Below, one piece after another: positions 7,769-27,558 of a stretch of 64,000 nt of DNA (position 1 is its first letter; each line of letters begins with the position of its first letter). Source of the stretch: Acidobacteriaceae bacterium (GTDB lineage Bacteria > Acidobacteriota > Terriglobia > Terriglobales > Acidobacteriaceae); contig DATEPN010000602.1 of assembly GCA_035273225.1 (NCBI GenBank), positions 1,050-65,049 on the forward strand, read 5' to 3'. Below the pieces are notes generated by a model. That model was not told the DNA's origin, made no database searches, and was given only the letters and a program-made list of their open reading frames with translations. A program made the translations under genes and the position numbers.

Positions 7769-7797
7769 CCTGTCAGGTAATTGTTATTGCTTTGTCA
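7769..7797 (-). promoter_or_regulatory. Phased direct repeats, site F (minus strand: TGACAAA-gcaa-TAACAAT-tacc-TGACAGG)
   Basis: Three heptamers at exact 11-bp spacing in an AT-rich patch, 33-61 nt upstream of the flippase ATG (7736). The site overlaps the last codons and stop of the nucleotidyltransferase gene. Confidence 0.4.
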
Positions 7798-9319
7798 TAC
7801 GTGGGGAATTGGTTTCGGCGGCGATGAATTGTCTCCACGAGCGCGTTTCGCGCAGGTAGCCGAGGCCGGCGACGAGATGAAAGCGGAGCCGCTGCAGAAC
7901 GAAGCGGCCCTGGACGCAGTGGCGGCGAATCCCGGCCCGGAGGCTCTCGTTGGCTACAGGATGCGCGATCGCCGGAGGCAGACGTCGAGGGAAGAGCGCT
8001 TGTCGCGCCGAACGCCGCGACCCGATGCCGAGCGCTTCCATTTGCTGCTGGAGAAGCAGGTAAACTTTGCTGCCGGGGAAGTTCATCACCGCAGAGCGGA
8101 CCCCGTACCGATCGACCCAGGCGCGCAGCGGCCGAGGCAGGCGATCGACCGTCCAGCGCCTGAAGGCATCCGGCGCGAACGGGCCCATGACCCGCTCGGT
8201 GAGCAGCGTCACGACTCCGAGCGCGAGCGAGGTGGCCAGGCTGCGCTCGCCACGTTCCATCACCTCATCCCAGAAATCGGCGTCGTCGCGGCGGGCGATG
8301 ACGTGCCGGCGGAACTCAAGGATGTGGGCGGGACGGTAAAACTCGCTGCAGAGGTGTTTGTAGAGATGCAGACCCTGACCGATGAACAGATCGGGCGCAC
8401 GGAGCACCGGCACGGAGATTCCGTGGAAGGGGACATGATGGAGGCGCTCCAGCAGCGACGAAGACGAGCTGGGCGATTCGAGGTGCAGTTCCAGGGAGCG
8501 ATGCGGGGAGGCGCAGTAGAGGTCCGCCAGGGACGAGGGCGGCGCGTCGGTTTTGAATTCCCAGCTGCGGCCGCTGATGGCCCGGAGCCGATAGCCGTGC
8601 CCTTCAAGGATCCGCTGCGCCGCAGGGGCATCGTACTCGGCGATCAGGTAGTCGAGGTCCAGCTGCGAGCGGAGTTCCAGCCGGGGCACCGAATGCGGCC
8701 ACAGCGAGCAGCCCTTCAGTACGGCGTAGTGCAGGCCGGAGTCCTGGAACTTCTGCTGGATGGCCATCGATTCAGCAAGCATGGAAGCCGTCCGTCGCGT
8801 ATTGTCGGCCAGATTCTGGCGCAGGCGATGAAGGACCGGCTTCGGCAGCATGGGCTCGAGCTGCTTCTCCTGAATCCGGGCCAGGAAATAGAGGGCCAGA
8901 CCGGAGACATCCAGCCAGTGAAGCGTCTGGTTCCATTCGCGGGAGCAAAGCAGCCACAGGCGAAGACATTCTCTCGGGATGGGATTCGAGAAGAGGAGCA
9001 ACACTGCCCGGCGTATCCGGAGGGCGCCGGAGAGCCTGGCGCTAGCCGGGCCGACCGTCGAGAAACGGGCGAAGGGATGAGCAAAATCGGCTGGCGGCTC
9101 GGGTGAGCGGCGGGCATGGTCGGTGTCGAGCTGAGGGAGCCTCTGCAGTTGCGCCGTGCTGTCGATACGGCCGGTGTGCAGCCGGGCTTGCATAAGACAA
9201 GCATATGGGGCGCGGCGGCGGGGCATGTCAGGCGCATGCAAGGAGATTGTCAGCGCATTATTGGCCTCGCGGAGAAGGCACGCCGGTGCGCACGGCCTTT
9301 CAGCGGACCGGCTCTGCAC
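7784..9319 (-). CDS. PF14907-type uncharacterised nucleotidyltransferase family protein
   Basis: YAVLKGCSLW...RSQLDLDYLI...A..IL...GY resembles the NTP_transf_5 core. The true start may be the internal ATG at 9193 (MQARLH...), which would give about 469 aa. Confidence 0.65.
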   Translation of the reverse strand: MQSRSAERPCAPACLLREANNALTISLHAPDMPRRRAPYACLMQARLHTGRIDSTAQLQRLPQLDTDHARRSPEPPADFAHPFARFSTVGPASARLSGALRIRRAVLLLFSNPIPRECLRLWLLCSREWNQTLHWLDVSGLALYFLARIQEKQLEPMLPKPVLHRLRQNLADNTRRTASMLAESMAIQQKFQDSGLHYAVLKGCSLWPHSVPRLELRSQLDLDYLIAEYDAPAAQRILEGHGYRLRAISGRSWEFKTDAPPSSLADLYCASPHRSLELHLESPSSSSSLLERLHHVPFHGISVPVLRAPDLFIGQGLHLYKHLCSEFYRPAHILEFRRHVIARRDDADFWDEVMERGERSLATSLALGVVTLLTERVMGPFAPDAFRRWTVDRLPRPLRAWVDRYGVRSAVMNFPGSKVYLLLQQQMEALGIGSRRSARQALFPRRLPPAIAHPVANESLRAGIRRHCVQGRFVLQRLRFHLVAGLGYLRETRSWRQFIAAETNSPRMTKQ

Positions 9320-9324
9320 GCGGA

Positions 9325-9342
9325 TGACAAACGTTTGACAAA
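9325..9342 (+). promoter_or_regulatory. Phased direct repeats, site A (TGACAAA-cgtt-TGACAAA)
   Basis: A perfect 7-mer duplicated at 11-bp spacing, 54-71 nt upstream of the OMP ATG (9396), in the divergent region shared with the nucleotidyltransferase gene. Confidence 0.4.
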
Positions 9343-9395
9343 GATCAGACCCTGCGGCAACACCTCGGCCGTAGAAAGCCGCTAAGTTTGCGGCT

Positions 9396-10445
9396 ATGTC
9401 AGCAAGTTTCTCTTTTTACACACGGACCCGGTGCTGGACGGCGAGGCTCCTGGCCTGCTGCACCGTCCTGCTGTTTGCCAGCGCACAGGCTCGCGCGCAG
9501 GATACTCCGCTTCTCTCCGGAGGCGTGGCGTTCCTGACCAGCACGCATGGCGGGAACACAACTTATCTGCCGATCATCGAGCCGTTGCTGGCGGCTCCCA
9601 TTGGCCAGCACGTGCTGGTGGAGTCGCGCGCCGCTCTGCTGGAGACGTATTTCCCGGGAGGCAACGGGTACAAGCACTCGCATTTTGTCGGCCTCACCTA
9701 TCTGCAGGGAGATTTCCTGGTGGGTCCGCATCTGAATGTGGTCGCGGGGAGCTATCTGCTTCCGTTCGGCACGTATAACGAGCGGCTGTCGCCGGTGTGG
9801 ATCAGCAATCTGCAGGACGGGCCGCTGATCGCGAACCTCGGGTTGCTGTCGACGGGGACGGGGGTAGGCGGACAACTGCGCGGATCGGCGGTGAGCACGC
9901 CCAATTTCTCGATCGACTACTCCGTGTGGTATTCGGCACACAGCGGCAACGAGCAGTTCAGCGCGAAGCGAGCAACGGGCGAACGCACGGACGTTTATCT
10001 CCCGAAGCAGCGGCTGGAGATCGGTCTGTCCTGGGATCGCCAGCTTGAGGGCACGCGGGAGAACTTCGTCGGCACTCATGTGTGGTGGGAACCTGCGGAT
10101 ACGGCGTTCCGGTTTCGCTCGGAGTTCGCGCGCGGCGCCCATGGGCAGGGGTACTGGACAGAAGCCGATTATCGGCTCGCGCGGTTTGGTGGCGCGGACA
10201 CCTTTGTGGGCCGGTTCGAGCCGGTCTTCCGGCTGCAACAGACGTTTCGGCGCAACAACCTGGCCAGCGATGGACTGCCCTCGGTGAACACGCAGAGGGC
10301 CGACTTCGGGCTGGACTATAACCTGCCGCACAGCGTCAGGATCCTGACGAGCTACTCGCGCCAGTTCTCAGCAACGCGCAACGAAAACATCTGGGAAACG
10401 GGCATCGTTTACCGCTTCCTGGTTCCCACCTGGAAAGGAAGATAG
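9396..10445 (+). CDS. Secreted outer-membrane beta-barrel (porin-like) protein, family unassigned
   Basis: Signal peptide (LLFASAQARAQ), alternating amphipathic beta-strand pattern, aromatic-rich C-terminal strand (GIVYRF). 2-nt gap to the next gene. Confidence 0.5.
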   Translation: MSASFSFYTRTRCWTARLLACCTVLLFASAQARAQDTPLLSGGVAFLTSTHGGNTTYLPIIEPLLAAPIGQHVLVESRAALLETYFPGGNGYKHSHFVGLTYLQGDFLVGPHLNVVAGSYLLPFGTYNERLSPVWISNLQDGPLIANLGLLSTGTGVGGQLRGSAVSTPNFSIDYSVWYSAHSGNEQFSAKRATGERTDVYLPKQRLEIGLSWDRQLEGTRENFVGTHVWWEPADTAFRFRSEFARGAHGQGYWTEADYRLARFGGADTFVGRFEPVFRLQQTFRRNNLASDGLPSVNTQRADFGLDYNLPHSVRILTSYSRQFSATRNENIWETGIVYRFLVPTWKGR

Positions 10446-10447
10446 GG

Positions 10448-10756
10448 ATGCGTTTGTCTCGTTTTGTGCCGTCGTTGTTTGTGGCCGGGGCTCTGGCCTG
10501 CGCCGCGCTTTCTGGTTCGGCAGAGCATCAGGCCGGCCAGCCCGCGGCCCGTCATGATTCCCAGGCTGGTTCTCAGGCGAACGACCAGCTCGCCGAAGAA
10601 GGTCAGCGCGTGTTTCAGCAGAACTGCTCACGGTGCCACAACGCTCCGGAGTCGTTTCCGCCGAGCATTACGGGCACGATCCTGCGTCACATGCGGGTGC
10701 GCGCGAACCTGAGCCGGCACCAGGAAAAGGCTCTGCTGGAGTTCCTCAATCGCTAG
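10448..10756 (+). CDS. Small periplasmic mono-haem c-type cytochrome
   Basis: Signal peptide, a single CxxCH (CSRCH) and a distal Met (RHM). 102 aa. Confidence 0.7.
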   Translation: MRLSRFVPSLFVAGALACAALSGSAEHQAGQPAARHDSQAGSQANDQLAEEGQRVFQQNCSRCHNAPESFPPSITGTILRHMRVRANLSRHQEKALLEFLNR

Positions 10757-12068
10757 CGGCGTCGGCCAGATGCGTTTGGGCGAGGGGAGGCGCGGCATTG
10801 GGCCGGGAGAGCAGGATCCGGGTGCTGACCGCCGCGGCTACGGCAAAAGCGGAGACTCCGGCGAGGACGGCCGTATATCCGAAGCGCACATAGAGGATGC
10901 CGGCGAAGGTCGTGGCAACGGATGCGGCGAGATTGTTGATGAACATGGTGAACCCCGCGGCGGTGCTGCGCTCCTCCTCCGGGGTTTCGTTCATGAGCAG
11001 GTTATAGAGCGCCGGGGAACTCATCCACTGCGCCGCGGAGAAGGCCAGATAGAAGGCGATCGCCAGGCCACGATGGCGGGCACCCGCCATGAGCAGAAGC
11101 AGCGCGGCGGTGACGAGCTCGGTGGCGAGAATTCCGTTCAGCATACCGGCGCGGCGGATCAGGATCGGCAGCAGGATGCCGGCGAGCACCTGTACGCCCT
11201 GCGCCAGCGAAAAGATGAGCCCGATGCTGGCGAGCGATACATGCAGATCGCGTGAGAGATAGACATTCGCGAATGGGGCGAACGCCGCAATCAGGGCCGA
11301 CCAGAGGCCCATGCACAGCAGGAAGCGGCGCAGAAACGGGCGCAGGCGGAATAGTGCCAACCAGTGCCTCTGCGCGGTCGCTCCCCCGGCGACATCGGCG
11401 GATTTCGCGGGTGTGGCTAAATGCAGGCGAAGGATCGCAGAGATGCCGGCCGCCGCCAGGATGCAGGATCCGACGAGGATGAGGCGCTTCACGGCGGCGG
11501 GCGAGAGGGCGAATCCAGCGAGGCGCAGCCAATCGGGGAGATAGCCGCAAATGGCGCCGCCGAGCGCGCTGGTGCCGACGCCGACGGAGAAGATCATGCT
11601 CATGCCGGCGGTGCGGTTCTTTTCGCTCGTGAGCGCAGCGACGACGGGCAGGAAGGAAACGGTCCAGAGGCACATCGCGATTCCGGCGATGAAAGCCAGG
11701 GCGATCTGGGCGGGCTGCCAGATCCAGACGGCGCGCAGCAGGCCGACGAAGGGTGCAGCGACAAAGCAGACCAGCAGCAGTGGCCGCATGCCGATACGGC
11801 GGCCGAGAACGCCCACGGGCACAGTACCCGCCATCATGCCGAGCGTGAAGGCGCCGTTGATGAAGCCGATGACTTTTTCGTCGAAGCGAAAATCGAGCAG
11901 ATAGAGATTGAAGAGGAAGAAGTAGACGGCAAAGCCGGCGTCGAAGAAGAAGGCAGCCGTGAAGAAGATCCAGTAGCCGCGGCTGAGCTGATGCTCGCGG
12001 AGCCAGGCGCGGGGCGATCTCCAGAACTGCGGCGGACGGGCGCCCAGGGTTTCCTGCGCCGGCTGCAT
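10746..12068 (-). CDS. MFS transporter
   Basis: 440 aa with about 12 TM spans and a GRRIGMRP-type loop between TM2 and TM3. ATGA-type overlap with the upstream kinase gene at 12068. Confidence 0.8.
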   Translation of the reverse strand: MQPAQETLGARPPQFWRSPRAWLREHQLSRGYWIFFTAAFFFDAGFAVYFFLFNLYLLDFRFDEKVIGFINGAFTLGMMAGTVPVGVLGRRIGMRPLLLVCFVAAPFVGLLRAVWIWQPAQIALAFIAGIAMCLWTVSFLPVVAALTSEKNRTAGMSMIFSVGVGTSALGGAICGYLPDWLRLAGFALSPAAVKRLILVGSCILAAAGISAILRLHLATPAKSADVAGGATAQRHWLALFRLRPFLRRFLLCMGLWSALIAAFAPFANVYLSRDLHVSLASIGLIFSLAQGVQVLAGILLPILIRRAGMLNGILATELVTAALLLLMAGARHRGLAIAFYLAFSAAQWMSSPALYNLLMNETPEEERSTAAGFTMFINNLAASVATTFAGILYVRFGYTAVLAGVSAFAVAAAVSTRILLSRPNAAPPLAQTHLADAASD

Positions 12069-13090
12069 CAGCGGCCCTCGGCGAGGATGCGAAGGTGCTC
12101 GACCGCCTGATCGAGAGTCTGGTAGCGGAGCTCCAGCACATCGGCTTCGAGGAGGCGCTCGACGTCGTCGTATTGACGCGCCAGCGACGCTCGACTGCCG
12201 AAAAGCTGCTGGCGCATGTAGCGGCGGGCGACATCGCGGGAGTAGGGGAAGAGGCCGGAGGTGCCGTGCACGCGCCGATTGAGGAAGACGATCGCGTTCA
12301 CATCGGCGCAGTGCTGACGGCGAACGTGGGGCAGGGATCCGGTTAGCAATTCAATGGACGGCTTGCCCTCTGCGCGCGGCGTGAGCGGCAGCCCGGCAAT
12401 CTCCGGGAAGAGATCGGCAGCGGTGGGGCGCAGCCGGACCTGGTGGCAGTTGCCGATGACCCTGCGCCCATGGAGAAGAAAGCAGGCGTCGTCGGAGACA
12501 TATCCCCACCCGGCCCGCGCACACGCGAAGGACAGAGAAGACTTGCCTGCGCCGGAATCGCCGCAGAGCAGAATGCCGCGGCCGTTCAGCGTGACGCAAC
12601 CCGCATGGACCGGCGTGGTGTGCCGGGTGGCGATGTGCACGCCGGCGCCACACTCGAGAAAAAAGTAGCGAAAATAGAGCGGATGCCGCAGCGCCGCCGA
12701 GGTGGCCACGATCTTCGTGCGGCTCAGGGAAATGTCTGCGATCGAGTAGTGATGCGGGTCGGCAATGGTAACGAGGAGCGGCTCAACGAATCGATATTGT
12801 GGCTGCGGCGGGCACTCCTGCTGCGGCGCGCCGTCCTGCTGCGTGCCTTCGACAACGTAGACTTCCGCGAGAATGGGCTCAGTGTCGAAACGCTGTTCGA
12901 AGTAGCCCCACTGCGTTCGGCATAGCGCGAGGATCTCTTCGGAATTCGTGCGGATCTCGAGCGGGAATCCCAGCGGGAAGAATTTGGCCTGGAAAGTCAG
13001 GGCCGGAGCGTCAACCGGGTGCGGGTCGGGCTCGGCAGCGGCCCGACCCGCGCAGGCGGATTCGATCTCTTCGATCGTCAGCAAGGTCAT
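12068..13090 (-). CDS. HprK-related P-loop kinase (HPr kinase C-terminal-like domain)
   Basis: GILLCGDSGAGKSSL....AG...VSDD parallels the HprK Walker-A/DD region (GxSGxGKSE...L.ADD). Start at ATG 13090, 4 nt after the TonB receptor stop. The upstream 94 codons of the tracked ORF overlap that receptor and are not credible. Confidence 0.75.
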   Translation of the reverse strand: MTLLTIEEIESACAGRAAAEPDPHPVDAPALTFQAKFFPLGFPLEIRTNSEEILALCRTQWGYFEQRFDTEPILAEVYVVEGTQQDGAPQQECPPQPQYRFVEPLLVTIADPHHYSIADISLSRTKIVATSAALRHPLYFRYFFLECGAGVHIATRHTTPVHAGCVTLNGRGILLCGDSGAGKSSLSFACARAGWGYVSDDACFLLHGRRVIGNCHQVRLRPTAADLFPEIAGLPLTPRAEGKPSIELLTGSLPHVRRQHCADVNAIVFLNRRVHGTSGLFPYSRDVARRYMRQQLFGSRASLARQYDDVERLLEADVLELRYQTLDQAVEHLRILAEGR

Positions 13091-13094
13091 CCTC

Positions 13095-16000
13095 TCAGAA
13101 CTGGTAACGCAGCGCGAACTGGATGATGCGGGGGTTGGCGTTGGTTGATGTGATTTTGCCGAAGGTCGGACTGGGTGACGGGTTTGGCAAGGTCGGATCG
13201 CTGTAGCCGAGGCTGGTGTTTGGATTCCCAAACTGCGGGGTGTTGGTGAGGTTGAAGAACTCCGCGCGCAGGCGAACGCTATTCGCTTCAGCAATCGGGA
13301 AGCTGCGCTCGACAGCAGCGTCGACGCTGTGCTGGCCGGGACCGCGCACGATGCCAACACCACTGTTGCCAAAGTCCTGATCGGCGAGGCTGGTGCCGTT
13401 CGGAGCTTCGGGTGCGCGGGTGAATGCGGACGCGTTGAGGTAGCCGTTCAGGACGCGCGAATAGAGCGATCCGCGCATGATCGGGCTGGGATTACCCGGT
13501 GCGCGCTGCGCGCGGACTTCGCCGGGAATGAGACCGTACACCGAGCCGGCGTTGTTGTCGAAGACGCTGAGCGCACTGCCGGACTGGACGACGCCGATGC
13601 CGGAGAACTGCCATCCGTTGAGCGTATGGCGCGCCAGAGCGGAGCCCAGATGCAAGGCGGGCGGCTGCCAGTGGAAGTTGGCCACGAAACGCTGCGAGCG
13701 GTCATCGCCGGCTGGGCCGTAGGAGGACTGACGCAGGTGATGCTGATCGTTGGTGGGAAGCTGTAGTTCGAAGACGTCCGTTCCGCCTTCGCCGTTCACT
13801 TCGTCGAGGTTCTTCGACCAGGTGTAGCTGGCTTCGATTGCGAATCCGTACTGCATCTGGCGTCGCAGGCTGGTCTGGAGGGAGTTGTAGTTGCCGATGA
13901 AAACTGAGTCGGTGTAGAGCGATCCCTGGCCGACACCCTGGATGGGCATGCGCGCGCTCACGTTCGCGACGGAGTTGGTGGTTTCGCCGTTGATGGGGTT
14001 ATCGGGGCTGGCGAGGGGCGCCTGATCGAACTCTATCTGGCCGGAGCGGTGATCCGAGTGCGTGCCGACATAGCCGACACCGAGCAGATAGCCTCGCCCG
14101 AGAGCGTACTCCACGTTCAGGTTGTATTCCTGGGTACGCCCGTCGAGCATGTGCGAGTTCGTGCTCTCGATGAACGGCGTCGAGTCGGGGGTGCGGGGCG
14201 TGAAAACCGGATAACTGGACTTTGGCTGGATGAGCGGCACAAACGGGCTCTGGAGGGACGCAGCGCCGTTCGGGGCTCCGCCCACGAACTGCAGGGTTGC
14301 GAAGGGCGGCTGGTTCACGGTTTGTCCTGCGAGGGTGGCGGAGTGGCGGTCGAAATAGATTCCGTAGCCGCCGCGCAGAATGAGGAGAGGATGCTGCGAG
14401 ACCTGCCAGGCAAAGCCGAGGCGGGGCGAAATGTCGCCGAGCGGCGTCTGGTACAGGCCGGCGAAGGGAGTGCGCACGACCCCATCAGGCAGTGTGCCTT
14501 TGAAGTTGGAGGGCAGGGTGAAGCCGCTGAACGTGCCGGTTGCGGAAAGCGGTCCCTGGGTTGCGGTCAGGGGATTGAAGTTCGAGAGCCTGCCCTTAAT
14601 TTCCGTCGGCGCGCCGAAGACTTCGTAGCGGACGCCTTCGTTCAGTGTCAGGCGCGGCGTGAGGCGGAAGTCGTCCTGCAGGAATCCGGCGAAGTCGTTG
14701 TAGCGTCCGTCGCGGCGGAAGATTCCTCCGCCGGCGATGCTGAGCAGGACATTGCTGAGGCCGAAGGGGCTGTTGTTCTGAGCGGCACTTTCGCCGAGCA
14801 GAAAATCATCGAAGGTGCCAATGATGAGCAGCCCATCGACCTGCTCCGGCGTGTCGATGTCGACCTGATGGCGCTTGAACTCGGCGCCGGCGCGGATGTT
14901 GTGGCGGCCGCGGGTGAGGGCGATCGTGTCCTGCCCGACGAAGGTGTTGGTGACCTGCCAGAGCGATGGGCTGCCGGCATCGCCAATGGTGAAGCCACCG
15001 ACGGAGAGGCTTGGAGCATGCGAGGTCGTGTCTGGCGCACCGGTGGGAGTCCCTTCGCCGAGGGGCTGAGCCAGCAGGGGATTTTCAATCCGCGCGAGGC
15101 CATCGAAGCGCACATAGCCGAGGCGCGCCATATTGACCAGCTTCGCGCTGAACACATGCGTGTCGGTGAGGACGAACATCGTGTTGCGGTTGAGCGCGTT
15201 CGTGCCCCAGCCGGGGACATTGGCGCTATTGGCGGAGAATGGCTCGTTCGTGAGTCCGCGTGAATAGAAGAAGCGGCCAGCCAGCGTATTGCTGGGGCGG
15301 AGAGCGTGATCCACATTCACGGAGAACTGATTTGCGCTGTAGTGTGCAGGGATCGCGAACGTCGATTGCCCGACCGGCATTTGATCGGAGGGATCGGGGC
15401 CGGAGGCGGGGAGAACTACCTGGGGGCTCGGGATCGCGAATTGTCCGTTCGGAAGCTTCGCGTTGAGAATGGCAAGCGCGACGGGGTTGATGTTGGAGCC
15501 GTCGCACGCCACCTGCGTTCCTCCCGCGATGGTCAGATATCCGCTGGCGGGCTGGCCGGAGGCGTTGAGGTGTCCGTCGGGGCAAAACTGCGCGCCCAGT
15601 GCGGCCGCGGTGCGATCCTGCGGCAGCACCGGGAGGATGGGATTCTGCTCGTCGCCGAGGCCGTTCACTTCGCGCAGGCCCTCATACGCGCCGAAAAAAA
15701 ATGTGCGGTCGTGGCGGATGGGCCCGCCGACTGCTGCGCCGAATTGATTCTGCTTCAGGTCAGGGCGGGGCTGCCCGTCCAGTTTCGAGAAGAAGTCGTT
15801 CGCATTGAAGATATTGTTGCGGACGAATTCCCATGCGCTGCCGTGGAACTGGTTGCTTCCGGAGCGGCTGACCAGGTCAACGTTGGCGCCTGAGCCGCGG
15901 CCGTAGGCAGCGTCGAAGTTGGCGGTCTGTACGCGAAATTCCTGAATGGTGTCGGGGGAGGGAATGGCCGTGCCCACCTCGAACCCGGTTGCCGTCGCCG

Positions 16001-16643: not shown

Positions 16644-16699
16644 GGTGGGCCTCTCTGTGAAGCAGGATGAGGCTGAGTATGCGGAGCGGACAGCGGGAG

Positions 16700-16728
16700 A
16701 TTGTTAGCCGTTTGTCACCTGATTGTAG
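16700..16728 (-). promoter_or_regulatory. Phased direct repeats, site E (minus strand: CTACAAT-cagg-TGACAAA-cggc-TAACAAT)
   Basis: Three heptamers at 11-bp spacing, 57-85 nt upstream of the TonB receptor GTG (16643). Shares the bipartite TGACAAA-N4-TAACAAT with site F. Confidence 0.35.
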
Positions 16729-16826
16729 GTTTGTTGCGCCGGGATGATAGAGATGGCGGAGAAATGAGGCGCGCTGCGCATGATGAGGAGCTTCGGCATT
16801 GCCCCGGGCAATCCGTGAAGGACCGG

Positions 16827-16854: not shown

Positions 16855-16882
16855 TTCGGCCCGGGGAACGGGGCAGCGCAGC

Positions 16883-17221: not shown

Positions 17222-17255
17222 TTTTCCTCCAGATGAATAGGGTGAATTGAGGCTG

Positions 17256-18475: not shown

Positions 18476-18494
18476 CGGGGTGAACTGCCTGCGC

Positions 18495-18523
18495 TGACAA
18501 AGCGATGACATTGTTGTGACAAC
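18495..18523 (+). promoter_or_regulatory. Phased direct repeats, site B (TGACAAA-gcga-TGACATT-gttg-TGACAAC)
   Basis: Three TGACA heptamers at exactly 11/11-bp spacing, 70-98 nt upstream of the TIGR03118 ATG (18593). Confidence 0.45.
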
Positions 18524-18592
18524 CGTGGAGCCTGCGGTTGGCTATCGTGCGTCAGAAATGGCCGGGCTCTGCGCCCGTCCGGAAGGACGCCT

Positions 18593-19699: not shown

Positions 19700-19711
19700 C
19701 GCGGCAACGGT

Positions 19712-19737
19712 GAAGCGCAGTCGCCCGACTGCGCTTC
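19712..19737 (+). terminator. Intrinsic-terminator-like hairpin after the TIGR03118 gene
   Basis: Perfect 12-nt arms GAAGCGCAGTCG / CGACTGCGCTTC starting 13 nt after the stop, followed by the T/C-rich gcttcttcctc. Confidence 0.6.
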
Positions 19738-19841
19738 GCTTCTTCCTCAGGCGTGGTTTTGCCAGGCCAATCCACGCTTTGGTCTGCCGGATGCTCGCGT
19801 GAGCGTACCGACGAGGGCATCCGGACTTCTTCCTTCCGCGC

Positions 19842-19870
19842 CAACAGAATCCTGACAATCACCTGACGCA
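19842..19870 (+). promoter_or_regulatory. Phased direct repeats, site C (CAACAGA-atcc-TGACAAT-cacc-TGACGCA), more degenerate
   Basis: 11-bp phasing, 58-86 nt upstream of the preferred cupredoxin start (19928). This is the weakest of the six sites. Confidence 0.25.
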
Positions 19871-19927
19871 CCCATGACACCCGCCCTGGGGGGCGACGCT
19901 AGTCTGTGCTCAGTTATGCGGAGAATC

Positions 19928-20293
19928 ATGAGACTGAAACGTGCATTGATCGCTGGAAGTATGTTCCTGATTGCCGTTGCGCCTGTGGTGTGTCGTCCAT
20001 CGCCGGCCGAGGTGCAGCCTCAAAAGGTTGAAGTCATTGCGAAGCGATTTGGCTTTGAACCGGCAGAGATCACGCTGAAGAAAGGTCAGCCGGTGGAACT
20101 GGAGCTCAGGAGCGTCGACGTTTCGCATGGGGTCCGGTTTCGCGAACTGGGCGTGAACGTCAAGGCGAAACAAGGGCAGACGGGCGAGGTGCAGTTCACG
20201 CCCGAGAAGACCGGGACTTTTGTAGGCCACTGCGATGTGTTCTGCGGTTCGGGGCACGGATCAATGAAGCTCACTGTTCACGTGGTGCAGTAG
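19928..20293 (+). CDS. Stand-alone CuA-type cupredoxin domain protein
   Basis: Exact CuA ligand spacing H-x34-C-x3-C-x3-H-x2-M (SHGV...GHCDVFCGSGHGSM). N-terminal signal/anchor. Start chosen at ATG 19928 (GGAGA 3 nt upstream); the ORF opens at 19874. Confidence 0.7.
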   Translation: MRLKRALIAGSMFLIAVAPVVCRPSPAEVQPQKVEVIAKRFGFEPAEITLKKGQPVELELRSVDVSHGVRFRELGVNVKAKQGQTGEVQFTPEKTGTFVGHCDVFCGSGHGSMKLTVHVVQ

Positions 20294-20295
20294 GG

Positions 20296-20775
20296 ATGCG
20301 GAGCATGCGCGTGGTGCGACAAACGGCGATCGCCACGATGTTAGTCAGCGTAAGCGGCTGCAAGGCGACCGCTCCGACGCCGCTCGAGACCCGCATCGTC
20401 ACGGTGGCGAAGCACGACGTTTTCGTCGGAGGCAAGAAGCAGAAGAATCCGTTGCCGGCGACGCCCGATGTGATTGCGGAAGGCAAAGACGCGTTCTCGC
20501 ATTACTGCGTTGCCTGCCACGGCATGGATGGACAGAACACAGGCGTGCCGTTTCTGGAGCATATGTCGCCGCCGGTGCCATCGCTGGCCTCACGCGAAGT
20601 GCAGAGCTACACCGACGGGCAGCTGAAGTGGGTGATCGAGAACGGCATCTGGCCGTCGGGCATGCCTGGTTCGAAAGGCACGCTCAGTGACGAGGAGATG
20701 TGGTCGATCGTGGTGTTCATCCGCCATCTGCCGCCGGCGGGAAGCCTGGGCGAGCCACCGATGTACAGCCAGTGA
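20296..20775 (+). CDS. Lipoprotein c-type cytochrome (mono-haem)
   Basis: Lipobox VSGC, CVACHG, distal GMPG. 2-nt gap after the cupredoxin gene. Confidence 0.8.
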   Translation: MRSMRVVRQTAIATMLVSVSGCKATAPTPLETRIVTVAKHDVFVGGKKQKNPLPATPDVIAEGKDAFSHYCVACHGMDGQNTGVPFLEHMSPPVPSLASREVQSYTDGQLKWVIENGIWPSGMPGSKGTLSDEEMWSIVVFIRHLPPAGSLGEPPMYSQ

Positions 20776-20782
20776 GAGGGCC

Positions 20783-23767
20783 ATGAGGCAACGGGACGAA
20801 AACTCGGAACTGCGGCGGAGTCCATGGGCGCTGCGGCTGCTCTCCGCCGGTGTGGTGGCCATGACTCTGTTCGGTGCGGCGCCGCTGAGCTTGCACGCGC
20901 AGGAAAACAGCATCGCCGCACCTCCTGCTTTGCAGACGGGCCCGGACGGGCTGGGTGCGCTCGATTCATCCGGATCGCGAGCAGGGCAGGCCAATGATGC
21001 CAGGGTCTTTGAGGGCTCGGCATCGGCGACGGACAGCGCAATCCAGCCGCTCACCGCGGCGCAGATCTTTGCCATCCTCGAGCAAAACCCGGAGGCGGTG
21101 ATCGAGGTGAAGTCGCTGTTGGCCGATAAGCTGGCGCAGCAGGGAATTCCTCTGGCCCCGGATGCGATCACCGACGACGTTCTGTATTCGCAGATCGGTC
21201 AGAACCGCGATGTGCGTGCTTCAATCACTCTGTTTTTGCGAGCGCGCGGGTATCTGACCGCGGCAGCGCTGCAGGCGCCTTCGTCCGGCGCCGCAGCGAT
21301 GGATGCGACGACCTCGATGATGCAGATGTCGTCGCTCTCCTCTCCGGACGAAAGCAGCCTCACGTCTCCCTTTGCAGGCAATTCCGGAGCAAGCCCGTAC
21401 GGGCCGGGAGCGTCGCCTTCCATGAACCGGGCAGCGGCGTCCCCCTCCACGACCGCAGCGCGGCAGGCCGGCATAACCGACCCGCCTGCCGTGTTGCGTG
21501 TTCCCACGCCCTACAACCTGCTTTCGCTGCGCGATCTGTACACGCAGGTGCCGGCCTCGACGGAGCATCTGAAACGCTTTGGATCCGACGTGTTTGTTGA
21601 TCGCAGCTTCGGCGCCGGCAGCAGGCTGGGAGCGGTTGGCGCCGCACCTGCGCTCGATGTCCCCGCAGGGCCGGATTACGTGGTGGGGCCGGGAGATGCG
21701 CTGATCGTGAACATGTGGGGCGGCGTTTCGCAGAGCCTGACGCGGGTCATCGACCGCGACGGCAAAGTGATGCTGCCTGAAGCAGGCGACGTGCATGTGG
21801 CCGGTATGCCGATGGAGCAGGCGCAGGCGGCCATCACGCATGCCCTGCAGCAGCAGTTTCGGAATGTGCAGGTCTCCGTCAGCCTGGCGCGGCTGCGCAG
21901 CATTCGGGTGTATGTGGTGGGCGACGTGCAGCGGCCTGGAGCGTACGACATCAGCTCGCTTTCGTCTCCGCTGAGCGCGCTGTATGCGGCGGGAGGGCCA
22001 ACGGCGACGGGGTCGCTCCGCACGCTGCGGCATTATCGCGGTCGGGAGCTCGTGGGCGAGGTGGATCTCTACGATTTTCTGCTGCATGGAATCCGCAGCG
22101 GCGACGATCGGCTGCAGGGCGGGGACACGCTGCTGGTGCCTCCGGCGGGAGCGCAGGTTGCGGTTGCCGGGGCAGTACGGCGTCCGGCGATTTACGAGCT
22201 GAAGGATGAGAAAACCCTGAGCCAGGTGCTCGGGGATGCCGGCGGAACAACGGTCGATGCCGCGCTGGGCCACATCACGGTGGAGCGCATTGACGCCCAT
22301 CAGCATCGCGAGACGACGACGCTGGACCTCGACCCTCCGGGCGATCCGCCGAATGATCCGCCGGGCGATCCGGTGGTCGCACACGCGGACCTGACACACT
22401 TCACGGTGCAGGATGGCGATCGCATCGAGGTCGCGCCCATCGTGCCGTGGAGCGAGCGCGTTGTGTATCTGGAAGGGCACGTGGTGCGGCCTGGGCGCAC
22501 CGCATTTCACGACGGGATGCACCTCAGCGACGTGCTGCACAGCTATCGGGACCTGCTGCCCGAGCCGGCCGACCGCGCCGAGATTGTGCGGCTGGTACCG
22601 CCGGATCTGCATCCGGAGGCGATCGAATTCGAGGTGCCGGATGCGCTGGTTGGGAACGAGAATCCCACGCTGCAGCCCTTCGACACCGTACGCATCTTCG
22701 GACGGTACGAAACGGATGCGCCGCAGGTGACAGTGAACGGGGAGGTGCTGCACCCCGGCGCGTATCCGCTGGGGGCCGGGATGACGGCTGCCGATCTGGT
22801 GCGCATGGCCGGCGGTTTTCGTCGGGATGCGGACCTGAATGATGCGGATCTGATGAGTTACCACGTTGAGAACGGAAAGCAGATCGCAGGATTGCGAGCG
22901 AGCATCCGGATTGGCGACGCGGTCACGAAGCGAGACCGCAACAGTGATGTTGCTCTGCATGCGGGTGATGTGCTGACGATTCACCAGATCACGGGCTGGG
23001 CGGATATCGGCGCGACGATCACGATCGAAGGCGAGGTTGGACATCCGGGGGTTTACGGATTTCGCGAGGGCGAACATCTGAGCGACTTGCTGCGGCGCGC
23101 GGGCGGATTGCGCGACACTGCGTATCCGGAGGGGGCGGTCCTGACCCGCGAAGAGGTACGCACGCTGGAGGAAAAGAGCCGCGCAGAGCTGATCCGGCAA
23201 ATCGAGACCAGTTCGGCAGCGGCGCGGCTGTCGCCGAGTGTGGGCGGCAAGGACGCGTCAGGAACACTGCAGCTGATTCAGGCACAGGAGACTCAGGTGC
23301 TCTCGGATTTGCGCAGCGAGCCGCCGAACGGCAGGATGGTCATCCACATCGGCGCCGATATCGCGAGCTGGGCCGGCACACCGGCGGACATCGAGGTGCG
23401 CAAAGGCGACGTGCTGCGGATCCCGAAGCGTCCCGGTTTCGTGCTGGTCAGCGGACAGGTTTACAACGCTTCGGCGATTACGTTTACGCCGGGCAAGTCC
23501 GCCGGATGGTATTTGACGCGCGCGGGCGGAGCGACCTCGGCGGCGAATCGCAGGGAGATTTTCATCATTCGCGCGAATGGGTCGGTGGTTGGGCGGGGCG
23601 GCGAGGCGTGGTATGGGCGCGGCGTGCTCGCCACGCAGCTGTATCCGGGGGACGTGATCGTGGTACCGCAAAAGATTATCGGCGCGTCGCTGTTCTGGCG
23701 CAATTTGCTTTCCGGCGCGCAAGTCGCGTCCTCCATTGCGGTCGCGGCCGCGGTGGCCACTCTGTAG
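20783..23767 (+). CDS. Polysaccharide export protein (Wza/KpsD-like, Poly_export plus multiple SLBB domains)
   Basis: Signal peptide from ATG 20783. An Ala/Ser/Pro-rich linker, then Y.VGPGD.L.V..WG and about 5 repeated SLBB-like units (V.V.G.V..PG.Y). Confidence 0.85.
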   Translation: MRQRDENSELRRSPWALRLLSAGVVAMTLFGAAPLSLHAQENSIAAPPALQTGPDGLGALDSSGSRAGQANDARVFEGSASATDSAIQPLTAAQIFAILEQNPEAVIEVKSLLADKLAQQGIPLAPDAITDDVLYSQIGQNRDVRASITLFLRARGYLTAAALQAPSSGAAAMDATTSMMQMSSLSSPDESSLTSPFAGNSGASPYGPGASPSMNRAAASPSTTAARQAGITDPPAVLRVPTPYNLLSLRDLYTQVPASTEHLKRFGSDVFVDRSFGAGSRLGAVGAAPALDVPAGPDYVVGPGDALIVNMWGGVSQSLTRVIDRDGKVMLPEAGDVHVAGMPMEQAQAAITHALQQQFRNVQVSVSLARLRSIRVYVVGDVQRPGAYDISSLSSPLSALYAAGGPTATGSLRTLRHYRGRELVGEVDLYDFLLHGIRSGDDRLQGGDTLLVPPAGAQVAVAGAVRRPAIYELKDEKTLSQVLGDAGGTTVDAALGHITVERIDAHQHRETTTLDLDPPGDPPNDPPGDPVVAHADLTHFTVQDGDRIEVAPIVPWSERVVYLEGHVVRPGRTAFHDGMHLSDVLHSYRDLLPEPADRAEIVRLVPPDLHPEAIEFEVPDALVGNENPTLQPFDTVRIFGRYETDAPQVTVNGEVLHPGAYPLGAGMTAADLVRMAGGFRRDADLNDADLMSYHVENGKQIAGLRASIRIGDAVTKRDRNSDVALHAGDVLTIHQITGWADIGATITIEGEVGHPGVYGFREGEHLSDLLRRAGGLRDTAYPEGAVLTREEVRTLEEKSRAELIRQIETSSAAARLSPSVGGKDASGTLQLIQAQETQVLSDLRSEPPNGRMVIHIGADIASWAGTPADIEVRKGDVLRIPKRPGFVLVSGQVYNASAITFTPGKSAGWYLTRAGGATSAANRREIFIIRANGSVVGRGGEAWYGRGVLATQLYPGDVIVVPQKIIGASLFWRNLLSGAQVASSIAVAAAVATL

Positions 23768-23774
23768 GTGAGCG

Positions 23775-25046
23775 ATGGCAACGCAGGTGCTCGAAGGAAA
23801 TCCCGCTGCAACCGCAGAGCCGCGCGCGGCGAACTGGGTAGGCAACGCCGAGGTTCTGTGGGCGGGGCGCAGGATGCTGCTGCGGGCCGCGCTGCTGGGG
23901 CTGCTTGCGGGGCTGGCGATTGCCTTTCTCATCCCGAAGCGATACACGTCGACCGCGCGCATTATGCCGCCGGACAATTCGGGATCGAGCATGGCGATGC
24001 TGGCGGCACTGACCGGGCACAACCTGGGCGACCTGGGAGCGCTGGGCAGTTTGGCGGGCGGACTGCTCGGCGGCCGAACCAGCAGCGCGCTTTTTGTCGA
24101 TCTGCTGCGCAGCGGCAACGTTAGTGGTGCGCTGATCGATCGTTTTCACCTGCAACAGGCCTGGCACAAGCGGTATCGGGTAGACACCGCGAAATACCTG
24201 GCCCACCACACCAGCATCGTGGACGACAAGCGGAGCGGGGTGATCACGATTGAAGTGCAGGATGGCGATCCGGCGCGCGCGCGCGATCTGGCGCAGGGAT
24301 ACCTGGACGAACTGAACCGGGTGGTGATGCAGACCAGCACTTCGTCGGCGCACCAGCAGCGCGTGTTCTTCGAGCGGCGGCTCGCTTCGGTTCAAAAGGA
24401 GCTGGAGCAGGCACAGCTCGCGCTCAGCGATTTCTCCGGCAAGCACTCGATGGTGGATGTAACGGAGCAGGCGCGCGCGATGGTCGACGCAGCGGCCCGT
24501 CTGCAGGCGCAGCAGATCGCCGGCCAGTCGGAGGTCGATTCGCTGCGGCAGATCTATGGAGACAGCAATGTGCGGGTGCGCGCGGCGCAGGCACGGGTGT
24601 CCGAACTCGGCCATCAGCTGCAGCGGATGAGCGGAAGCGCATCGGCTGGCTGGCAGACGAGCGACAGCCCGGACGCGTTGTATCCGCCGCTGCGGCAGCT
24701 TCCACGGCTCGGGGTCATGTATGTGGACCTGTATCGCCGCGTGCGTGTCGAGGAGCAGGTTTTCGAACTGCTGACGCAGCAGGACGAGATGGCGCGCATC
24801 GCCGAGGTACGCGACGTTCCGGTGATCAGCGTCATCGATGTACCGGGGATTCCTGAGAAGAAGTCGTTTCCGCCGCGACTGCTCGTGGCCTTGCTGATCC
24901 TGCTGCTGAGCGTCGGCTGCACCGCAGCGGCGCTGCTCGTGCGTGATCGCTGGAACCGGCTCACGGCTGCCGATCCGCGCAGACTGCTGGCGGAGGAAGT
25001 CGCACAGGCGATGCAGAGCAGGGTCCGCCAGTGGAGGAAGCACTGA
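23775..25046 (+). CDS. Wzz/GumC-type polysaccharide co-polymerase (chain-length determinant) with no tyrosine-kinase domain
   Basis: N-terminal TM plus Wzz motif (IPKRYTSTARIMPPD), a long coiled-coil periplasmic region and a C-terminal TM. It ends at 423 aa with no Walker A/B or Tyr cluster. Confidence 0.8.
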   Translation: MATQVLEGNPAATAEPRAANWVGNAEVLWAGRRMLLRAALLGLLAGLAIAFLIPKRYTSTARIMPPDNSGSSMAMLAALTGHNLGDLGALGSLAGGLLGGRTSSALFVDLLRSGNVSGALIDRFHLQQAWHKRYRVDTAKYLAHHTSIVDDKRSGVITIEVQDGDPARARDLAQGYLDELNRVVMQTSTSSAHQQRVFFERRLASVQKELEQAQLALSDFSGKHSMVDVTEQARAMVDAAARLQAQQIAGQSEVDSLRQIYGDSNVRVRAAQARVSELGHQLQRMSGSASAGWQTSDSPDALYPPLRQLPRLGVMYVDLYRRVRVEEQVFELLTQQDEMARIAEVRDVPVISVIDVPGIPEKKSFPPRLLVALLILLLSVGCTAAALLVRDRWNRLTAADPRRLLAEEVAQAMQSRVRQWRKH

Positions 25047-26293
25047 TGGAGCGGGCGATCAGTGTATCCGGATGGACGGGTTCCGCACGCGCCGATGCGG
25101 CGGATCGCGCCGGCGAAGCTTCGGTCGCCGGTCTGGTTGCCGGAGCGGTGGGGTTCTTCTTCGCATTTCGTGTCGCCATCGTGCTGGTGGCGGTGCGCGG
25201 GTTCCTCGCCGACGCACAGACGGGCGCAGCGATCAGTCTGGCGCTGAATTATCTGCTGGTGTTCGCAGCCGCTCTGGTTGCAGCAGGACCGGCGCGGATT
25301 CCGCTGGCGGCCATGGCGCGGGTTGCTCCTCTGCGCTGGGCGGGTGCTTTCCTGGCGTTGAGCGGCGTCAGCCTGTTGTGGAGTCAGACCGCTTCGCTGC
25401 CGGCCGCCGCTGCTTTCTGGATCGCAATGGCCTGCGATGTAGCCGTCATCCTTCTGCTGGTGCGTGGCTCCGGAGCCAGGGCTGTTGGTTTCGCGCTGAT
25501 GAAGGGGTACATCTGGGGAGCATGTGCGTTCGCGGCCCTCGCCTGGCTGCTTCCTGCACAGTCGGACCTGCGGCTTGGCGACGAAGAACTGCTCGGACCG
25601 AATCAGATTGGGTATGTCTGTGCGGTCGCGGTGTTTTTCGCGCAGTATCTCGTCCGGAACCGGGCGCGGGGCTGGACCGTGCCCGCGGCTTTCCTGGCGA
25701 TCACGCTGCTCAGAACGCTGAGCAAAACTTCGATCGCGGCGTTCGTTGCAGGGGAAGCGTTCATCCTGCTGCGCGACCGCGGCATGAAGCGTTCCGTGAA
25801 GATCGGGCTTGCGGTGCTCGCGGTCGTCGTGACGCTTGCGTTTCAGGGGCTCATCGCGTCGTATTACGAGATCTATTCCAACGCCGGGAATCAGGCGGAA
25901 ACGCTCAGCGGCCGTCTCGGCATCTGGGCTTACTTCTTCACCGCTTCGCTCGAGAGCCCCTGGATCGGCCATGGCTTCCATTCGGTGTGGAAGGTGGTTC
26001 CGCCGTTTGGCCCGTTTGAAGCCCGGCACGCGCACAACGAGTGGCTGCAGCAGTTCTACGCGTACGGGGCGACGGGTGTCGTCGTCGTTGCCGGATTCTA
26101 CGTCATCGTATTCCGGCACATTCGCCGCTGCGCCACGGGTGCGGACAAGACGCTCCTCCTCGGCCTGCTGGTGTTTTCCGTGGTGCGCGGGTTGGCCGAC
26201 ACAGAGGTGTTCGACGTGTCGCTTTGCCTTTGGCTGGCGACGCTGCTCAGCCTGATGCTGGCGGAGTCAGCCGCCGGAAAGAGTCAATCATGA
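25046..26293 (+). CDS. O-antigen ligase/polymerase-family membrane protein (Wzy_C domain)
   Basis: About 11 TM spans. The periplasmic loop ...GHGF......F..HAHNEWLQ....G is typical of Wzy_C. Its ATG overlaps the upstream TGA. Confidence 0.75.
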   Translation: MERAISVSGWTGSARADAADRAGEASVAGLVAGAVGFFFAFRVAIVLVAVRGFLADAQTGAAISLALNYLLVFAAALVAAGPARIPLAAMARVAPLRWAGAFLALSGVSLLWSQTASLPAAAAFWIAMACDVAVILLLVRGSGARAVGFALMKGYIWGACAFAALAWLLPAQSDLRLGDEELLGPNQIGYVCAVAVFFAQYLVRNRARGWTVPAAFLAITLLRTLSKTSIAAFVAGEAFILLRDRGMKRSVKIGLAVLAVVVTLAFQGLIASYYEIYSNAGNQAETLSGRLGIWAYFFTASLESPWIGHGFHSVWKVVPPFGPFEARHAHNEWLQQFYAYGATGVVVVAGFYVIVFRHIRRCATGADKTLLLGLLVFSVVRGLADTEVFDVSLCLWLATLLSLMLAESAAGKSQS

Positions 26294-27465
26294 AGGTGGC
26301 GCTCGTCGCAGTCTCGTCGAATACGCAGCTTTCCGGCATCACGCGCCATGCGGCCAACCTGGCTCGGTGCCTGCTGCTGCACACGGCGATCGAAGAGATT
26401 CACCTCATCGTCGCTCCCTGGGAACAGCAGATGCTGCGCAGCGCGATCGCATGCGAGCATCCGCGGCTCCAGATGCACAGCGTGTTCGTGGACCGGGCGA
26501 GCCTGGCACGCAACCTGTGGTTCTATACGGAGCTGCCGCTGGTTGTGGATCAACTTGGCGCGGACGTGGTGCATCTCTCGTATCCCGCACCGCTCAACCG
26601 GCGTCGCGTGCGATGTCCTGCGGTCGTCACGATCCACGATTTATATCCGCACGATGTGCCGGAAAACTGGGGATATCCCAAGGTGATCTTCAATCGCATG
26701 ATTCTGCGGCAGTGCGTTGGCGCCGCGGACGCGCTCGCCTGCGTCTCGGACGCGACCCTGGAGCGTGTGCAGCACCGTTTCCCGGAAGCGATTGCAGGGA
26801 AGGCGTACCGGATTTACAACAGTGTCGAACCGGCCAGGGTGCGGAGTTGCCGGGGCCCGCTGCCGGCGCTGCAGCACGCTCCCTTTCTGCTTTGTGTCGC
26901 CCAGCATCGACGCAACAAGAATATTTCTCTGGCGGTGAGCGCGTTTCAGCGCCTGCTCCGCCAGGGTGCACTACCGTCCGAGACGCTTCTGGTCGTCGTG
27001 GGCATGCCGGGTCCGGAAACAGCGGCCTTGCAGCACAGCGCGGAGGAAGCCGGCGTCTGCAACAACGTTTTGTTCCTCAGCGGGATTTCCGAGGCGGAGC
27101 TGCAATGGTGCTACCGGAACTGCGACGTGCTGGTTGCCCCTTCGCTCATCGAGGGGTTTGGGCTGCCCGTCGCCGAGGGGCTGCTGGCCGGCTGCCGCGT
27201 CGTCTGTTCGGACATTCCGGCATTTCGAGAATTAGCCGGCGATCACTGCCGATACTTCCAGCTTGGATCCGGGGAGGAAGACGCATTCGCGGCGCAAATC
27301 GTCGCGGCGATAGGCGAAAAACGGCCGCAGCCGCTCGCGCTGCCCCAGCTTGCTCCGGGGTGCATTGCTCGGGAGTACCTGGCCCTGTATGAAAAGCTGG
27401 CGCGACAGCACGAGAGCAGAACCACAGCTCTCCAGCCTGTCCCCAGTGTTCTGGCACAGCGTTAA
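26290..27465 (+). CDS. Glycosyltransferase family 4 (GT-B, Glycos_transf_1)
   Basis: MKVALV......SGI.RH N-terminus, and C-terminal EGFGLPV.EG...G..VV.SD E-x7-E region. ATGA overlap with the upstream gene. Confidence 0.85.
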   Translation: MKVALVAVSSNTQLSGITRHAANLARCLLLHTAIEEIHLIVAPWEQQMLRSAIACEHPRLQMHSVFVDRASLARNLWFYTELPLVVDQLGADVVHLSYPAPLNRRRVRCPAVVTIHDLYPHDVPENWGYPKVIFNRMILRQCVGAADALACVSDATLERVQHRFPEAIAGKAYRIYNSVEPARVRSCRGPLPALQHAPFLLCVAQHRRNKNISLAVSAFQRLLRQGALPSETLLVVVGMPGPETAALQHSAEEAGVCNNVLFLSGISEAELQWCYRNCDVLVAPSLIEGFGLPVAEGLLAGCRVVCSDIPAFRELAGDHCRYFQLGSGEEDAFAAQIVAAIGEKRPQPLALPQLAPGCIAREYLALYEKLARQHESRTTALQPVPSVLAQR

Positions 27466-27486
27466 CCCGCAAATGGAGCGGCGAAA

Positions 27487-27536
27487 AATGTCACTCCTTT
27501 GTCATTTCGTAAGTTTTTGTTGTCAAAAGTATGTCA
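27487..27536 (-). promoter_or_regulatory. Phased direct repeats, site D: four TGTCA cores on the plus strand (minus strand reads TGACATA, TGACAAC, TGACAAA, TGACATT)
   Basis: TGTCA at 27489, 27500, 27521 and 27532 (spacing 11/21/11) in an AT-rich stretch 23-72 nt upstream of the response-regulator ATG (27559). Read on the plus strand it resembles two pho-box-like units (TGTCAC-tcctt-TGTCAT; TGTCAA-aagta-TGTCAG). Confidence 0.45.
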
Positions 27537-27558
27537 GCGGAGGGCAGAATGTACACCT

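Follow-up and report, generated by a model that had tools for sequence, protein, structure and literature searches.

Which protein reads a heptamer that recurs one helical turn apart in several promoter regions of the same genome? We address this question for a 64,000-nt stretch of Acidobacteriaceae DNA with a GC content of ~63% (hereafter the window), in which direct repeats of the heptamer family TGACAWW lie upstream of genes for polysaccharide assembly, outer membrane proteins, and copper and haem proteins, and also upstream of the gene for an OmpR/PhoB-family response regulator. An original prediction had listed six such sites (A to F) and proposed that they form the regulon of the local OmpR-family two-component system. 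Heptamers repeated directly every 11 bp across the -35 region are a hallmark of OmpR-type winged-helix proteins (PhoB, ArcA, SARPs, and GlnR). We find that the phased TGACA repeats are real and far from chance, and we consider it probable from the combined sequence evidence that the heptamers are operator units of the response regulator encoded at 27559-28299 (plus strand; receiver plus Trans_reg_C), partnered with the sensor histidine kinase encoded at 28338-30140 (plus strand).

Phased TGACA repeats and their place in promoters

The original prediction had proposed a comparison of the repeats with coding and shuffled DNA, and both comparisons set the repeats apart. The hexamer TGACAA/TTGTCA is found 10 times in the 3.7 kb of intergenic DNA in the window vs 14 times in the 60 kb that are coding (a 10.7-fold intergenic enrichment), and TGACAAA is 19-fold enriched in intergenic DNA. 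Exact same-strand TGACA pairs at a distance of 11 bp number five, compared to a mean of 0.10 and a maximum of 1 in 100 dinucleotide shuffles; at 22 bp there are four, compared to a mean of 0.07. All other spacings from 5 to 35 bp gave zero TGACA pairs in the window except 21 bp (one) and 32 bp (two), and these exceptions all lie within site D. TGACA is also the top pentamer of the window for self-pairs at 11 bp. Each of the six predicted sites is present where it had been placed and with the heptamers ascribed to it; the tallies of identical heptamers (TGACAAA six times; TGACATT, TGACAAC, and TAACAAT twice each) are correct, as is the 11/21/11-bp spacing of the copies in site D. On a gene map drawn from codon bias and Pfam matches, all sites fall in short intergenic stretches.

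The same periodicity is found across the family. We collected 80 species-level Acidobacteriaceae loci via the regulator (L009-L088; one genome per species; DNA up to 10 kb either side of the match; 1.46 Mb), which include Occallatibacter, Terracidiphilus, Granulicella, Edaphobacter, and Silvibacterium and in which the regulator is 71-91% identical to that of the window. These loci contain 193 TGACA self-pairs spaced 11 bp apart, 166 spaced 22 bp, and 44 spaced 33 bp, vs 0-13, mostly 1-4, at the other spacings from 5 to 45 bp. When all pentamers were compared, the excess at 11 bp was confined to TGACA (193 vs 2.0) and the words that overlap it. At least one array is present in 78 of the 80 loci, and among the 313 arrays found, 57 read toward the cupredoxin gene, 42 toward an outer membrane protein (OMP) gene, 24 toward the flippase gene, and 20 toward the NTP_transf_5 gene, while 54 are inverted and lie upstream of the regulator. 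As a separate observation, same-strand self-pairs of CCTTC/GAAGG at 11 bp number 33 in the 80 loci vs 5.8 at neighbouring spacings.

Alignments anchored on the last unit of each array contain information only at the units and at a -10-like element; the flanks are unconserved, and the spacers vary. Forward sites (TGACA toward the gene) are built from four 11-bp units: unit 1 nnACAA; unit 2 TGACAA(T/A); unit 3 TGAC, AGAC, or TnAC; and unit 4 TGACA(C/A). The strongest units are usually 2 and 4. A position weight matrix (PWM) built on four units, for which random sequence gave a maximum score of 10.6, found exactly six sites in the window (A, B, C, E, F, and a new site, G) with scores of 15.7-41.8. 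It found none across 28-64 kb, which bears out the earlier remark that the 36-64 kb region is free of phased pairs. The orientation described earlier also holds, with site D inverted relative to its downstream gene and the other sites, now six including G, reading toward theirs.

Conservation at orthologous promoters, the check that had been suggested, found the arrays kept in ~80 species. The phased TGACA sites of the relatives occupy orthologous positions: a PWM site precedes the orthologue of the OMP gene in 42 of 47 loci (site A), of the cupredoxin gene in 47 of 63 (site C), of the TIGR03118 gene in all seven (site B), of the TonB-type receptor gene in 7 of 11 (site E), of the flippase gene in 20 of 33 (site F), and of the NTP_transf_5 gene in 16 of 30 (site G). 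Thus, each forward site of the window, six in all, has conserved counterparts at orthologous promoters. Further arrays in other species precede genes for an ATP-binding cassette (ABC) transporter, RibBA, a PhyH-like dioxygenase, an NAD epimerase, a Rieske protein, and methyltransferases.

The position of the arrays relative to the -10-like element is nearly invariant. TAnnnT starts 25 nt after the T of unit 4 in 125 arrays and 26 nt after it in 25, i.e., in 150 of 173 forward arrays, and at essentially no other position; isolated TGACA pentamers, for which we looked for a preferred distance to TAnnnT, showed none. Because this distance is fixed, the arrays are parts of promoters. If TAnnnT occupies -12 to -7, the four units are positioned near -70, -59, -48, and -37, the last of them overlapping the -35 region. 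We rejected the notion that TGACA is an ordinary sigma-70 -35 element for the following reasons: The implied spacer from a TTGACA-like hexamer to the -10 would be 20 nt, a consensus scan for canonical sigma-70 promoters between 7.6 and 27.6 kb returned 0 compared to 2.9 expected from shuffles, and isolated TGACA keeps no fixed distance to TAnnnT. With a usable -35 missing and a phased array in its place, the forward sites have the geometry of activator-dependent promoters, and from this position we infer activation rather than repression.

Two explanations that dispense with a response regulator can be weighed against these data. The last TGACA and TAnnnT could together be an alternative-sigma promoter, with the upstream copies incidental or UP-like; the fixed distance between the two elements resembles a two-block promoter, and the gene for an extracytoplasmic function (ECF) sigma factor (17813-18475) lies immediately upstream of site B. 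The conserved features do not follow that gene, however: It is present in 7 of 88 related loci, hence outside the conserved module, while arrays are present in 78 of 80. Units 1 to 3 are kept in 11-bp register, which a sigma factor does not need; the site at the regulator gene lacks a -10 along the direction in which it reads; and TAnnnT is a -10 of the primary-sigma type. An alternative-sigma promoter is therefore very unlikely, and the ECF sigma factor itself was rejected because its gene is not co-conserved and because four phased units are. Still less credible is that the repeats are structural phased bends or a compositional by-product of AT-rich intergenic DNA with no specific binder. 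The sites do sit in AT-richer patches of a 63% GC genome, and an 11-bp period is also compatible with intrinsic curvature, but dinucleotide shuffles that preserve such composition contain ~0.1 pairs rather than five, the 11-bp excess belongs to a single pentamer and its overlapping words, and specific bases are kept in ~80 species while the spacers between them vary. The strict orientation toward the gene and the 25-nt rule likewise argue for recognition by a protein.

The local two-component system as candidate binder

Turning to the protein that would bind, the regulator combines an N-terminal receiver (Pfam Response_reg, E=1.4e-26) with a C-terminal winged helix (Pfam Trans_reg_C, E=3.6e-24), and the receiver keeps the acidic pocket, phospho-acceptor Asp, and conserved Lys of the family: its phosphorylation motifs EDD, LDL (the Asp), LSA, and KPF, aligned with PhoB, show at least 98% conservation. 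Among solved structures, the nearest are those of the generic family members MtrA, RegX3, and KdpE. The kinase gene begins 39 nt downstream and adjoins the regulator gene in 86 of 88 loci. The encoded kinase combines a periplasmic dCache_3-like domain of ~250 aa with HAMP, HisKA, and HATPase domains. More than 120 relatives of the regulator are 77-99% identical to it. Of the DNA-binding proteins encoded in the cluster, only the regulator is conserved, and it is also the best conserved cluster protein, with a median identity of 79% compared to 47-68% for the other widely shared ones (DoxX reaches 86% but is present in three loci only). Among 121 regulator orthologues, the recognition helix YPTTRTVDNQILKLRQKLE is at least 98% invariant, and this invariance matches that of TGACA.

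The regulator gene itself carries a conserved site. The motif TGTCA-N6-TGT(C/A)A, inverted relative to the other sites, precedes the gene in 76 of 80 species, and it corresponds to the first pair of site D. A -10-like element, (C/A)A(G/A)AAT, is present upstream of the regulator in 61 of 80 species, and in 56 of these 61 the second unit of the conserved pair begins 43-45 nt before it; no TAnnnT follows the array of the regulator promoter in the array's own reading direction. Site D of the window (27488-27537, minus strand, inverted relative to the regulator gene) reads on the plus strand ATGTCAC/TTGTCAT/(21 bp)/TTGTCAA/ATGTCAG, and its extra pair, 27520-27537, covers about -37 and -26 of a promoter whose -10-like hexamer CAGAAT (27545-27550, plus strand) ends 8 nt before the ATG at 27559. 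This layout, with two units in inverted orientation centred near -60, implies autoregulation, the sign of which is not readable from the sequence.

Since the regulator was the route by which the 80 loci were collected, we also used an approach independent of it and scanned metagenome contigs for the promoter architecture alone (19 specified bases). Of the 120 loci obtained, 73 carry homologues of cluster or regulon genes, all at 51-60% GC. The remaining 47 include four trivial 11-bp tandem repeats and eight loci in which the gene for an OmpR-type regulator (38-54% identity) lies no more than a few kb from the array. A shared recognition helix, TRT(V/L)D(N/Q)xxxKLRQK(L/I)E or a close variant, is found in five of the seven alignable regulators (L171, L155, L121, L152a, and L108) and diverges in the other two (L166 and L100); a second regulator in L152, which does not adjoin the array, is without it. 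Distant regulators that share the helix thus stand beside arrays, and the association between motif and regulator recurs in unrelated genomic contexts. Outside the Acidobacteriaceae, the four-unit architecture was seen as two conserved variants, TTTGACAAACTCCGCAC-N6-CTGACAC and TTAACAAACTTTTGACAAACTCTTAACAGCTTCCTGACAACTT, in two sets of loci: L121, L127, L152, L155, L090, and L117 (GC 0.60-0.66) and L109, L125, L174, and L191 (GC 0.37-0.46). In the high-GC set, the arrays lie upstream of kinase-regulator operons or of genes for VWA-domain proteins.

A mechanism consistent with these features would run as follows. The kinase would phosphorylate the regulator, which would bind the units head-to-tail along a single face of the helix, probably in the form of two tandem dimers. 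Bound regulator would then recruit RNA polymerase, as PhoB does at Pho boxes, in class II-type activation, and the inverted site at the regulator's own gene would provide autoregulation.

Several points weigh against this assignment. The linkage between regulator and arrays is guilt by association, and both binding and activation are predictions from sequence. Our scans cover loci rather than whole genomes, so sites elsewhere or a distant regulator gene may exist, and the presence of the regulator in the 80 loci is by construction, which makes the metagenome scan the only one independent of it. Compared to Escherichia coli Pho boxes, the units have the opposite orientation, and PhoB and SARP promoters place the proximal unit ~9 bp closer to the -10; given these two differences, the activation geometry is assumed, not demonstrated. 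Finally, site E is weak and without a clean TAnnnT.

Alternatively, the arrays could be operators of a different winged-helix regulator encoded elsewhere (a true PhoB, another global OmpR/PhoB-type protein, or a SARP-like protein), for which the local system would be just one target. The TGTCA core and 11-bp period are the core of proteobacterial Pho boxes, the regulator gene bears a site as any target would, the data are limited to loci, and some metagenome matches of Acidobacteriaceae-like GC have no cluster gene nearby. Nevertheless, the arrays cluster around the local regulator in 78 of 80 species loci, neither the 80 species loci nor the 120 metagenome loci have pst, phoU, phosphatase, or other phosphate genes downstream of arrays, and in other lineages the regulators adjoining arrays carry the same recognition helix while the non-adjacent regulator of L152 does not. 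The extreme conservation of the local regulator's helix also parallels the invariance of TGACA. We regard a regulator encoded elsewhere as unlikely, though the most plausible of the alternatives. The original proposal that the arrays are operators of the local two-component system is thus supported by conservation, promoter geometry, and independent linkage, and the local response regulator is the probable binder.

Sites and target genes in the window

In the window, the sites precede the following genes. Site F (7769-7811, minus strand; PWM 28.2) lies between the flippase and NTP_transf_5 genes and reads, after a degenerate unit 1, TGACAAA/TAACAAT/TGACAGG. Its -10-like hexamer TACCTT (7745-7750, minus strand) starts 25 nt after the T of unit 4 and ends 8 nt before the ATG at 7736, the start of an operon for flippase, Bac_transf, and WecG (4092-7736, minus strand). 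Relaxing the search to one mismatch exposed the seventh site, G, as well as a fourth phased unit of site C. Site G (9224-9266, minus strand; PWM 27.9) reads CAATAAT/TGACAAT-ctcc-TTGCATG-cgcc-TGACATG toward the NTP_transf_5 nucleotidyltransferase gene (7784-9193, minus strand), with a -10-like hexamer, TATGCT (9200-9205, minus strand), at +25 from unit 4 and 6 nt before the ATG at 9193; this ATG, rather than a GTG further upstream at 9319, is probably the true start of the gene. On the other side of the same divergent region, between the NTP_transf_5 and OMP genes, site A (9325-9364, plus strand; PWM 17.9) reads TGACAAA/TGACAAA/AGACCCT/CAACACC, the last two being extra degenerate units at 9347 and 9358. 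TAAGTT (9383-9388, plus strand) follows at +25 from unit 4; 7 nt separate it from the ATG at 9396, which opens a gene pair for an OMP without a Pfam match and a cytochrome c (9396-10756, plus strand).

The weakest site is E (16700-16742, minus strand; PWM 15.7), which reads GCGCAAC/CTACAAT/TGACAAA/TAACAAT upstream of the TonB-type barrel that heads an operon with an HprK-like kinase and a major facilitator superfamily (MFS) transporter (10746-16643, minus strand). It is followed by a poorer hexamer, TACTCA (16674-16679, minus strand), at +27, and the layout in one relative (L029) matches that of the window, TACTCA included. Site B (18484-18523, plus strand; PWM 18.4) lies between the ECF sigma gene, which the original prediction did not mention, and the TIGR03118 gene (18593-19699, plus strand); after a degenerate unit 1 it reads TGACAAA/TGACATT/TGACAAC, with TATCGT (18543-18548, plus strand) at +26 from unit 4. 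The highest-scoring site is C (19842-19881, plus strand; PWM 41.8), which reads CAACAGA/TGACAAT/TGACGCA/TGACACC, the newly exposed fourth unit starting at 19875, with TAGTCT (19900-19905, plus strand) at +25 from unit 4. It precedes an operon for a cupredoxin, cytochrome c, Wza, Wzz, Wzy, and GT4 (19928-27465, plus strand). A hairpin followed by a T-run at 19737-19753, between the TIGR03118 gene and site C, fits C as an independent promoter rather than read-through.

At the flippase, NTP_transf_5, OMP, and regulator genes, the -10-like hexamer ends 6-8 nt before the start codon, and the mRNAs are accordingly predicted to be leaderless; for the OMP gene, the distance from hexamer to start codon is kept across 38 species. 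An RNA element was also considered and rejected, as an Rfam search of the window returned no family match.

In relatives, the genes that the window spreads over 4-32 kb stand together in a contiguous cluster, in the order cupredoxin, cytochrome c, Wza, Wzz, Wzy, GT4, regulator, kinase, a ~500-aa protein, a ~230-aa protein, flippase/WecG, NTP_transf_5, OMP, small cytochrome c, and MFS. The window's version (4092-32366) is split and rearranged compared to the contiguous cluster of L004 and L007, with the TonB receptor/HprK-like kinase/MFS operon, DoxX, ECF sigma, and TIGR03118 genes inserted between its halves. An HprK-related kinase A-like protein (TIGR04352, below cut-off), NTP_transf_5, and MFS co-occur with the TonB-type receptor (10746-13372, 7784-9193).

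The conserved targets comprise a Wzx/Wzy-type polysaccharide pathway, a cupredoxin with a CuA motif, two monohaem cytochromes c, outer membrane barrels, and the TonB-type receptor operon, together with a Rieske protein elsewhere and ribBA in many species. The 121-aa cupredoxin (19928-20293) has a complete CuA-type motif (HCDVFCGSGHGSM) with no oxidase subunits nearby, and it always stands together with a monohaem cytochrome c as the leading pair of the Wza-Wzz-Wzy operon. In 13 species (e.g., L076 14993-15019 and L059 14948-14974), an array of three or four units, placed right after the two-component operon, precedes ribB or ribBA; this riboflavin synthesis target is absent from the window. 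Two conserved genes follow the kinase gene (30121-32366, plus strand). The first, p511, is present in 83 of 88 loci and encodes a protein that has a signal peptide and a coiled coil and whose C-terminus, ending YRF, is of the kind seen in outer membrane barrels; the second, p237, encodes the type-1-copper-like motif FCNIHPEM (Cys-x2-His-x2-Met) and a CarboxypepD_reg domain and is present in 79 of 88. The p511 and p237 proteins may be accessory envelope components or parts of the sensing system. Copper, iron, or redox state would be our guess for the inducing signal.

A more speculative reading, which we hold to be less likely than not, is that the regulator belongs to an undescribed, widespread OmpR-type subfamily, with the helix TRT(V/L)D(N/Q)xxxKLRQK and four-unit TGACA operators 25 nt before the -10, that would switch on a dedicated Acidobacteriaceae envelope module. 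If so, this module would join a Wzx/Wzy polysaccharide pathway to small periplasmic proteins that carry copper (CuA-type and type-1-like) or haem c, and to a TonB-type receptor, two outer membrane barrels, and often RibBA; it could be an uncharacterised extracellular redox or metal-handling system of soil bacteria. Acidobacteriaceae are among the most abundant bacteria of soil and peat, and to our knowledge almost nothing has been reported on their transcriptional regulation. A search of the literature available to us for the motif, the regulator, the cluster, and Acidobacteria regulons found no relevant description. One manganese proteome study of Granulicella reports an up-regulated MtrA-like regulator, which could not be linked to the regulator described here. 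The locus offers a precisely defined operator and promoter architecture, a candidate regulator ~80% identical across genera, and a conserved target set that ties polysaccharide export to copper and haem proteins and riboflavin synthesis. The regulon is directly testable, and it supplies candidate inducible promoters for Acidobacteriaceae, which have few genetic tools.

Comparison with known systems

The original prediction likened the sites to Pho boxes and to CusR/CopR boxes. Both comparisons hold as analogies; as identities they do not, because the regulator fails the family cut-offs and because the orientation and geometry of the sites differ. PhoB of E. coli and other Proteobacteria is also of the OmpR family, and its Pho box shares with the present sites 11-bp direct repeats, a TGTCA core, and tandem head-to-tail binding (here putative); in both systems the site stands in for a missing -35, and the regulator's own operon is a target. 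The units here, in contrast, read TGACA toward the gene, whereas the Pho box reads CTGTCAT toward it; the proximal unit begins 25 nt before the -10 compared to ~16 nt for the Pho box, which ends ~10 bp before the -10; there are four units of alternating strength; and the kinase, unlike PhoR, has a large periplasmic domain and HAMP. The regulator scores 185.7 bits against the PhoB equivalog TIGR02154 (cut-off 296.2) and 132 against NF007546 (cut-off 471). We thus rejected PhoB identity on family score, kinase type, target genes, and site geometry.

CusR, CopR, and HprR are likewise OmpR-family members whose box holds TGACAA and TTGTCA, and several targets here are copper or haem proteins, but the CusR box is an inverted repeat while the present sites are direct repeats. 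Against the heavy-metal subfamily models, the regulator scores 154 (TIGR01387, cut-off 279.2) and the kinase 69.3 (TIGR01386, cut-off 292.55). The failed cut-offs of both proteins, together with sites that are direct and not palindromic, led us to reject CusR/CopR identity. MtrA identity was rejected in the same manner, as the regulator scores 187.1 against the equivalog NF040689, short of its cut-off of 300; the kinase scores 93.6 against MtrB, for which the cut-off is 450.

Two further systems show how far the architecture is shared. E. coli ArcA, an OmpR-family regulator, uses two to five direct-repeat elements with an 11-bp period, in a number that varies by promoter; it reads TGTTA-type repeats and mostly represses by occlusion, whereas the fixed position overlapping -35 suggests activation here. 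The SARPs (e.g., AfsR and ActII-ORF4) and Streptomyces GlnR have OmpR-type winged helices and bind 11-bp heptamer repeats over -35, and in GlnR boxes strong and weak units alternate within four-unit sites, as they do here. The SARPs do not count among the phosphorylated response regulators, and in their promoters ~8 bp lie between the last repeat and the -10; the SARP and GlnR sequences differ, and their hosts are Actinobacteria. We conclude that, judged by its sequence, the regulator is a member of the OmpR/PhoB family that is neither PhoB nor CusR and whose proposed mechanism is conventional for that family.

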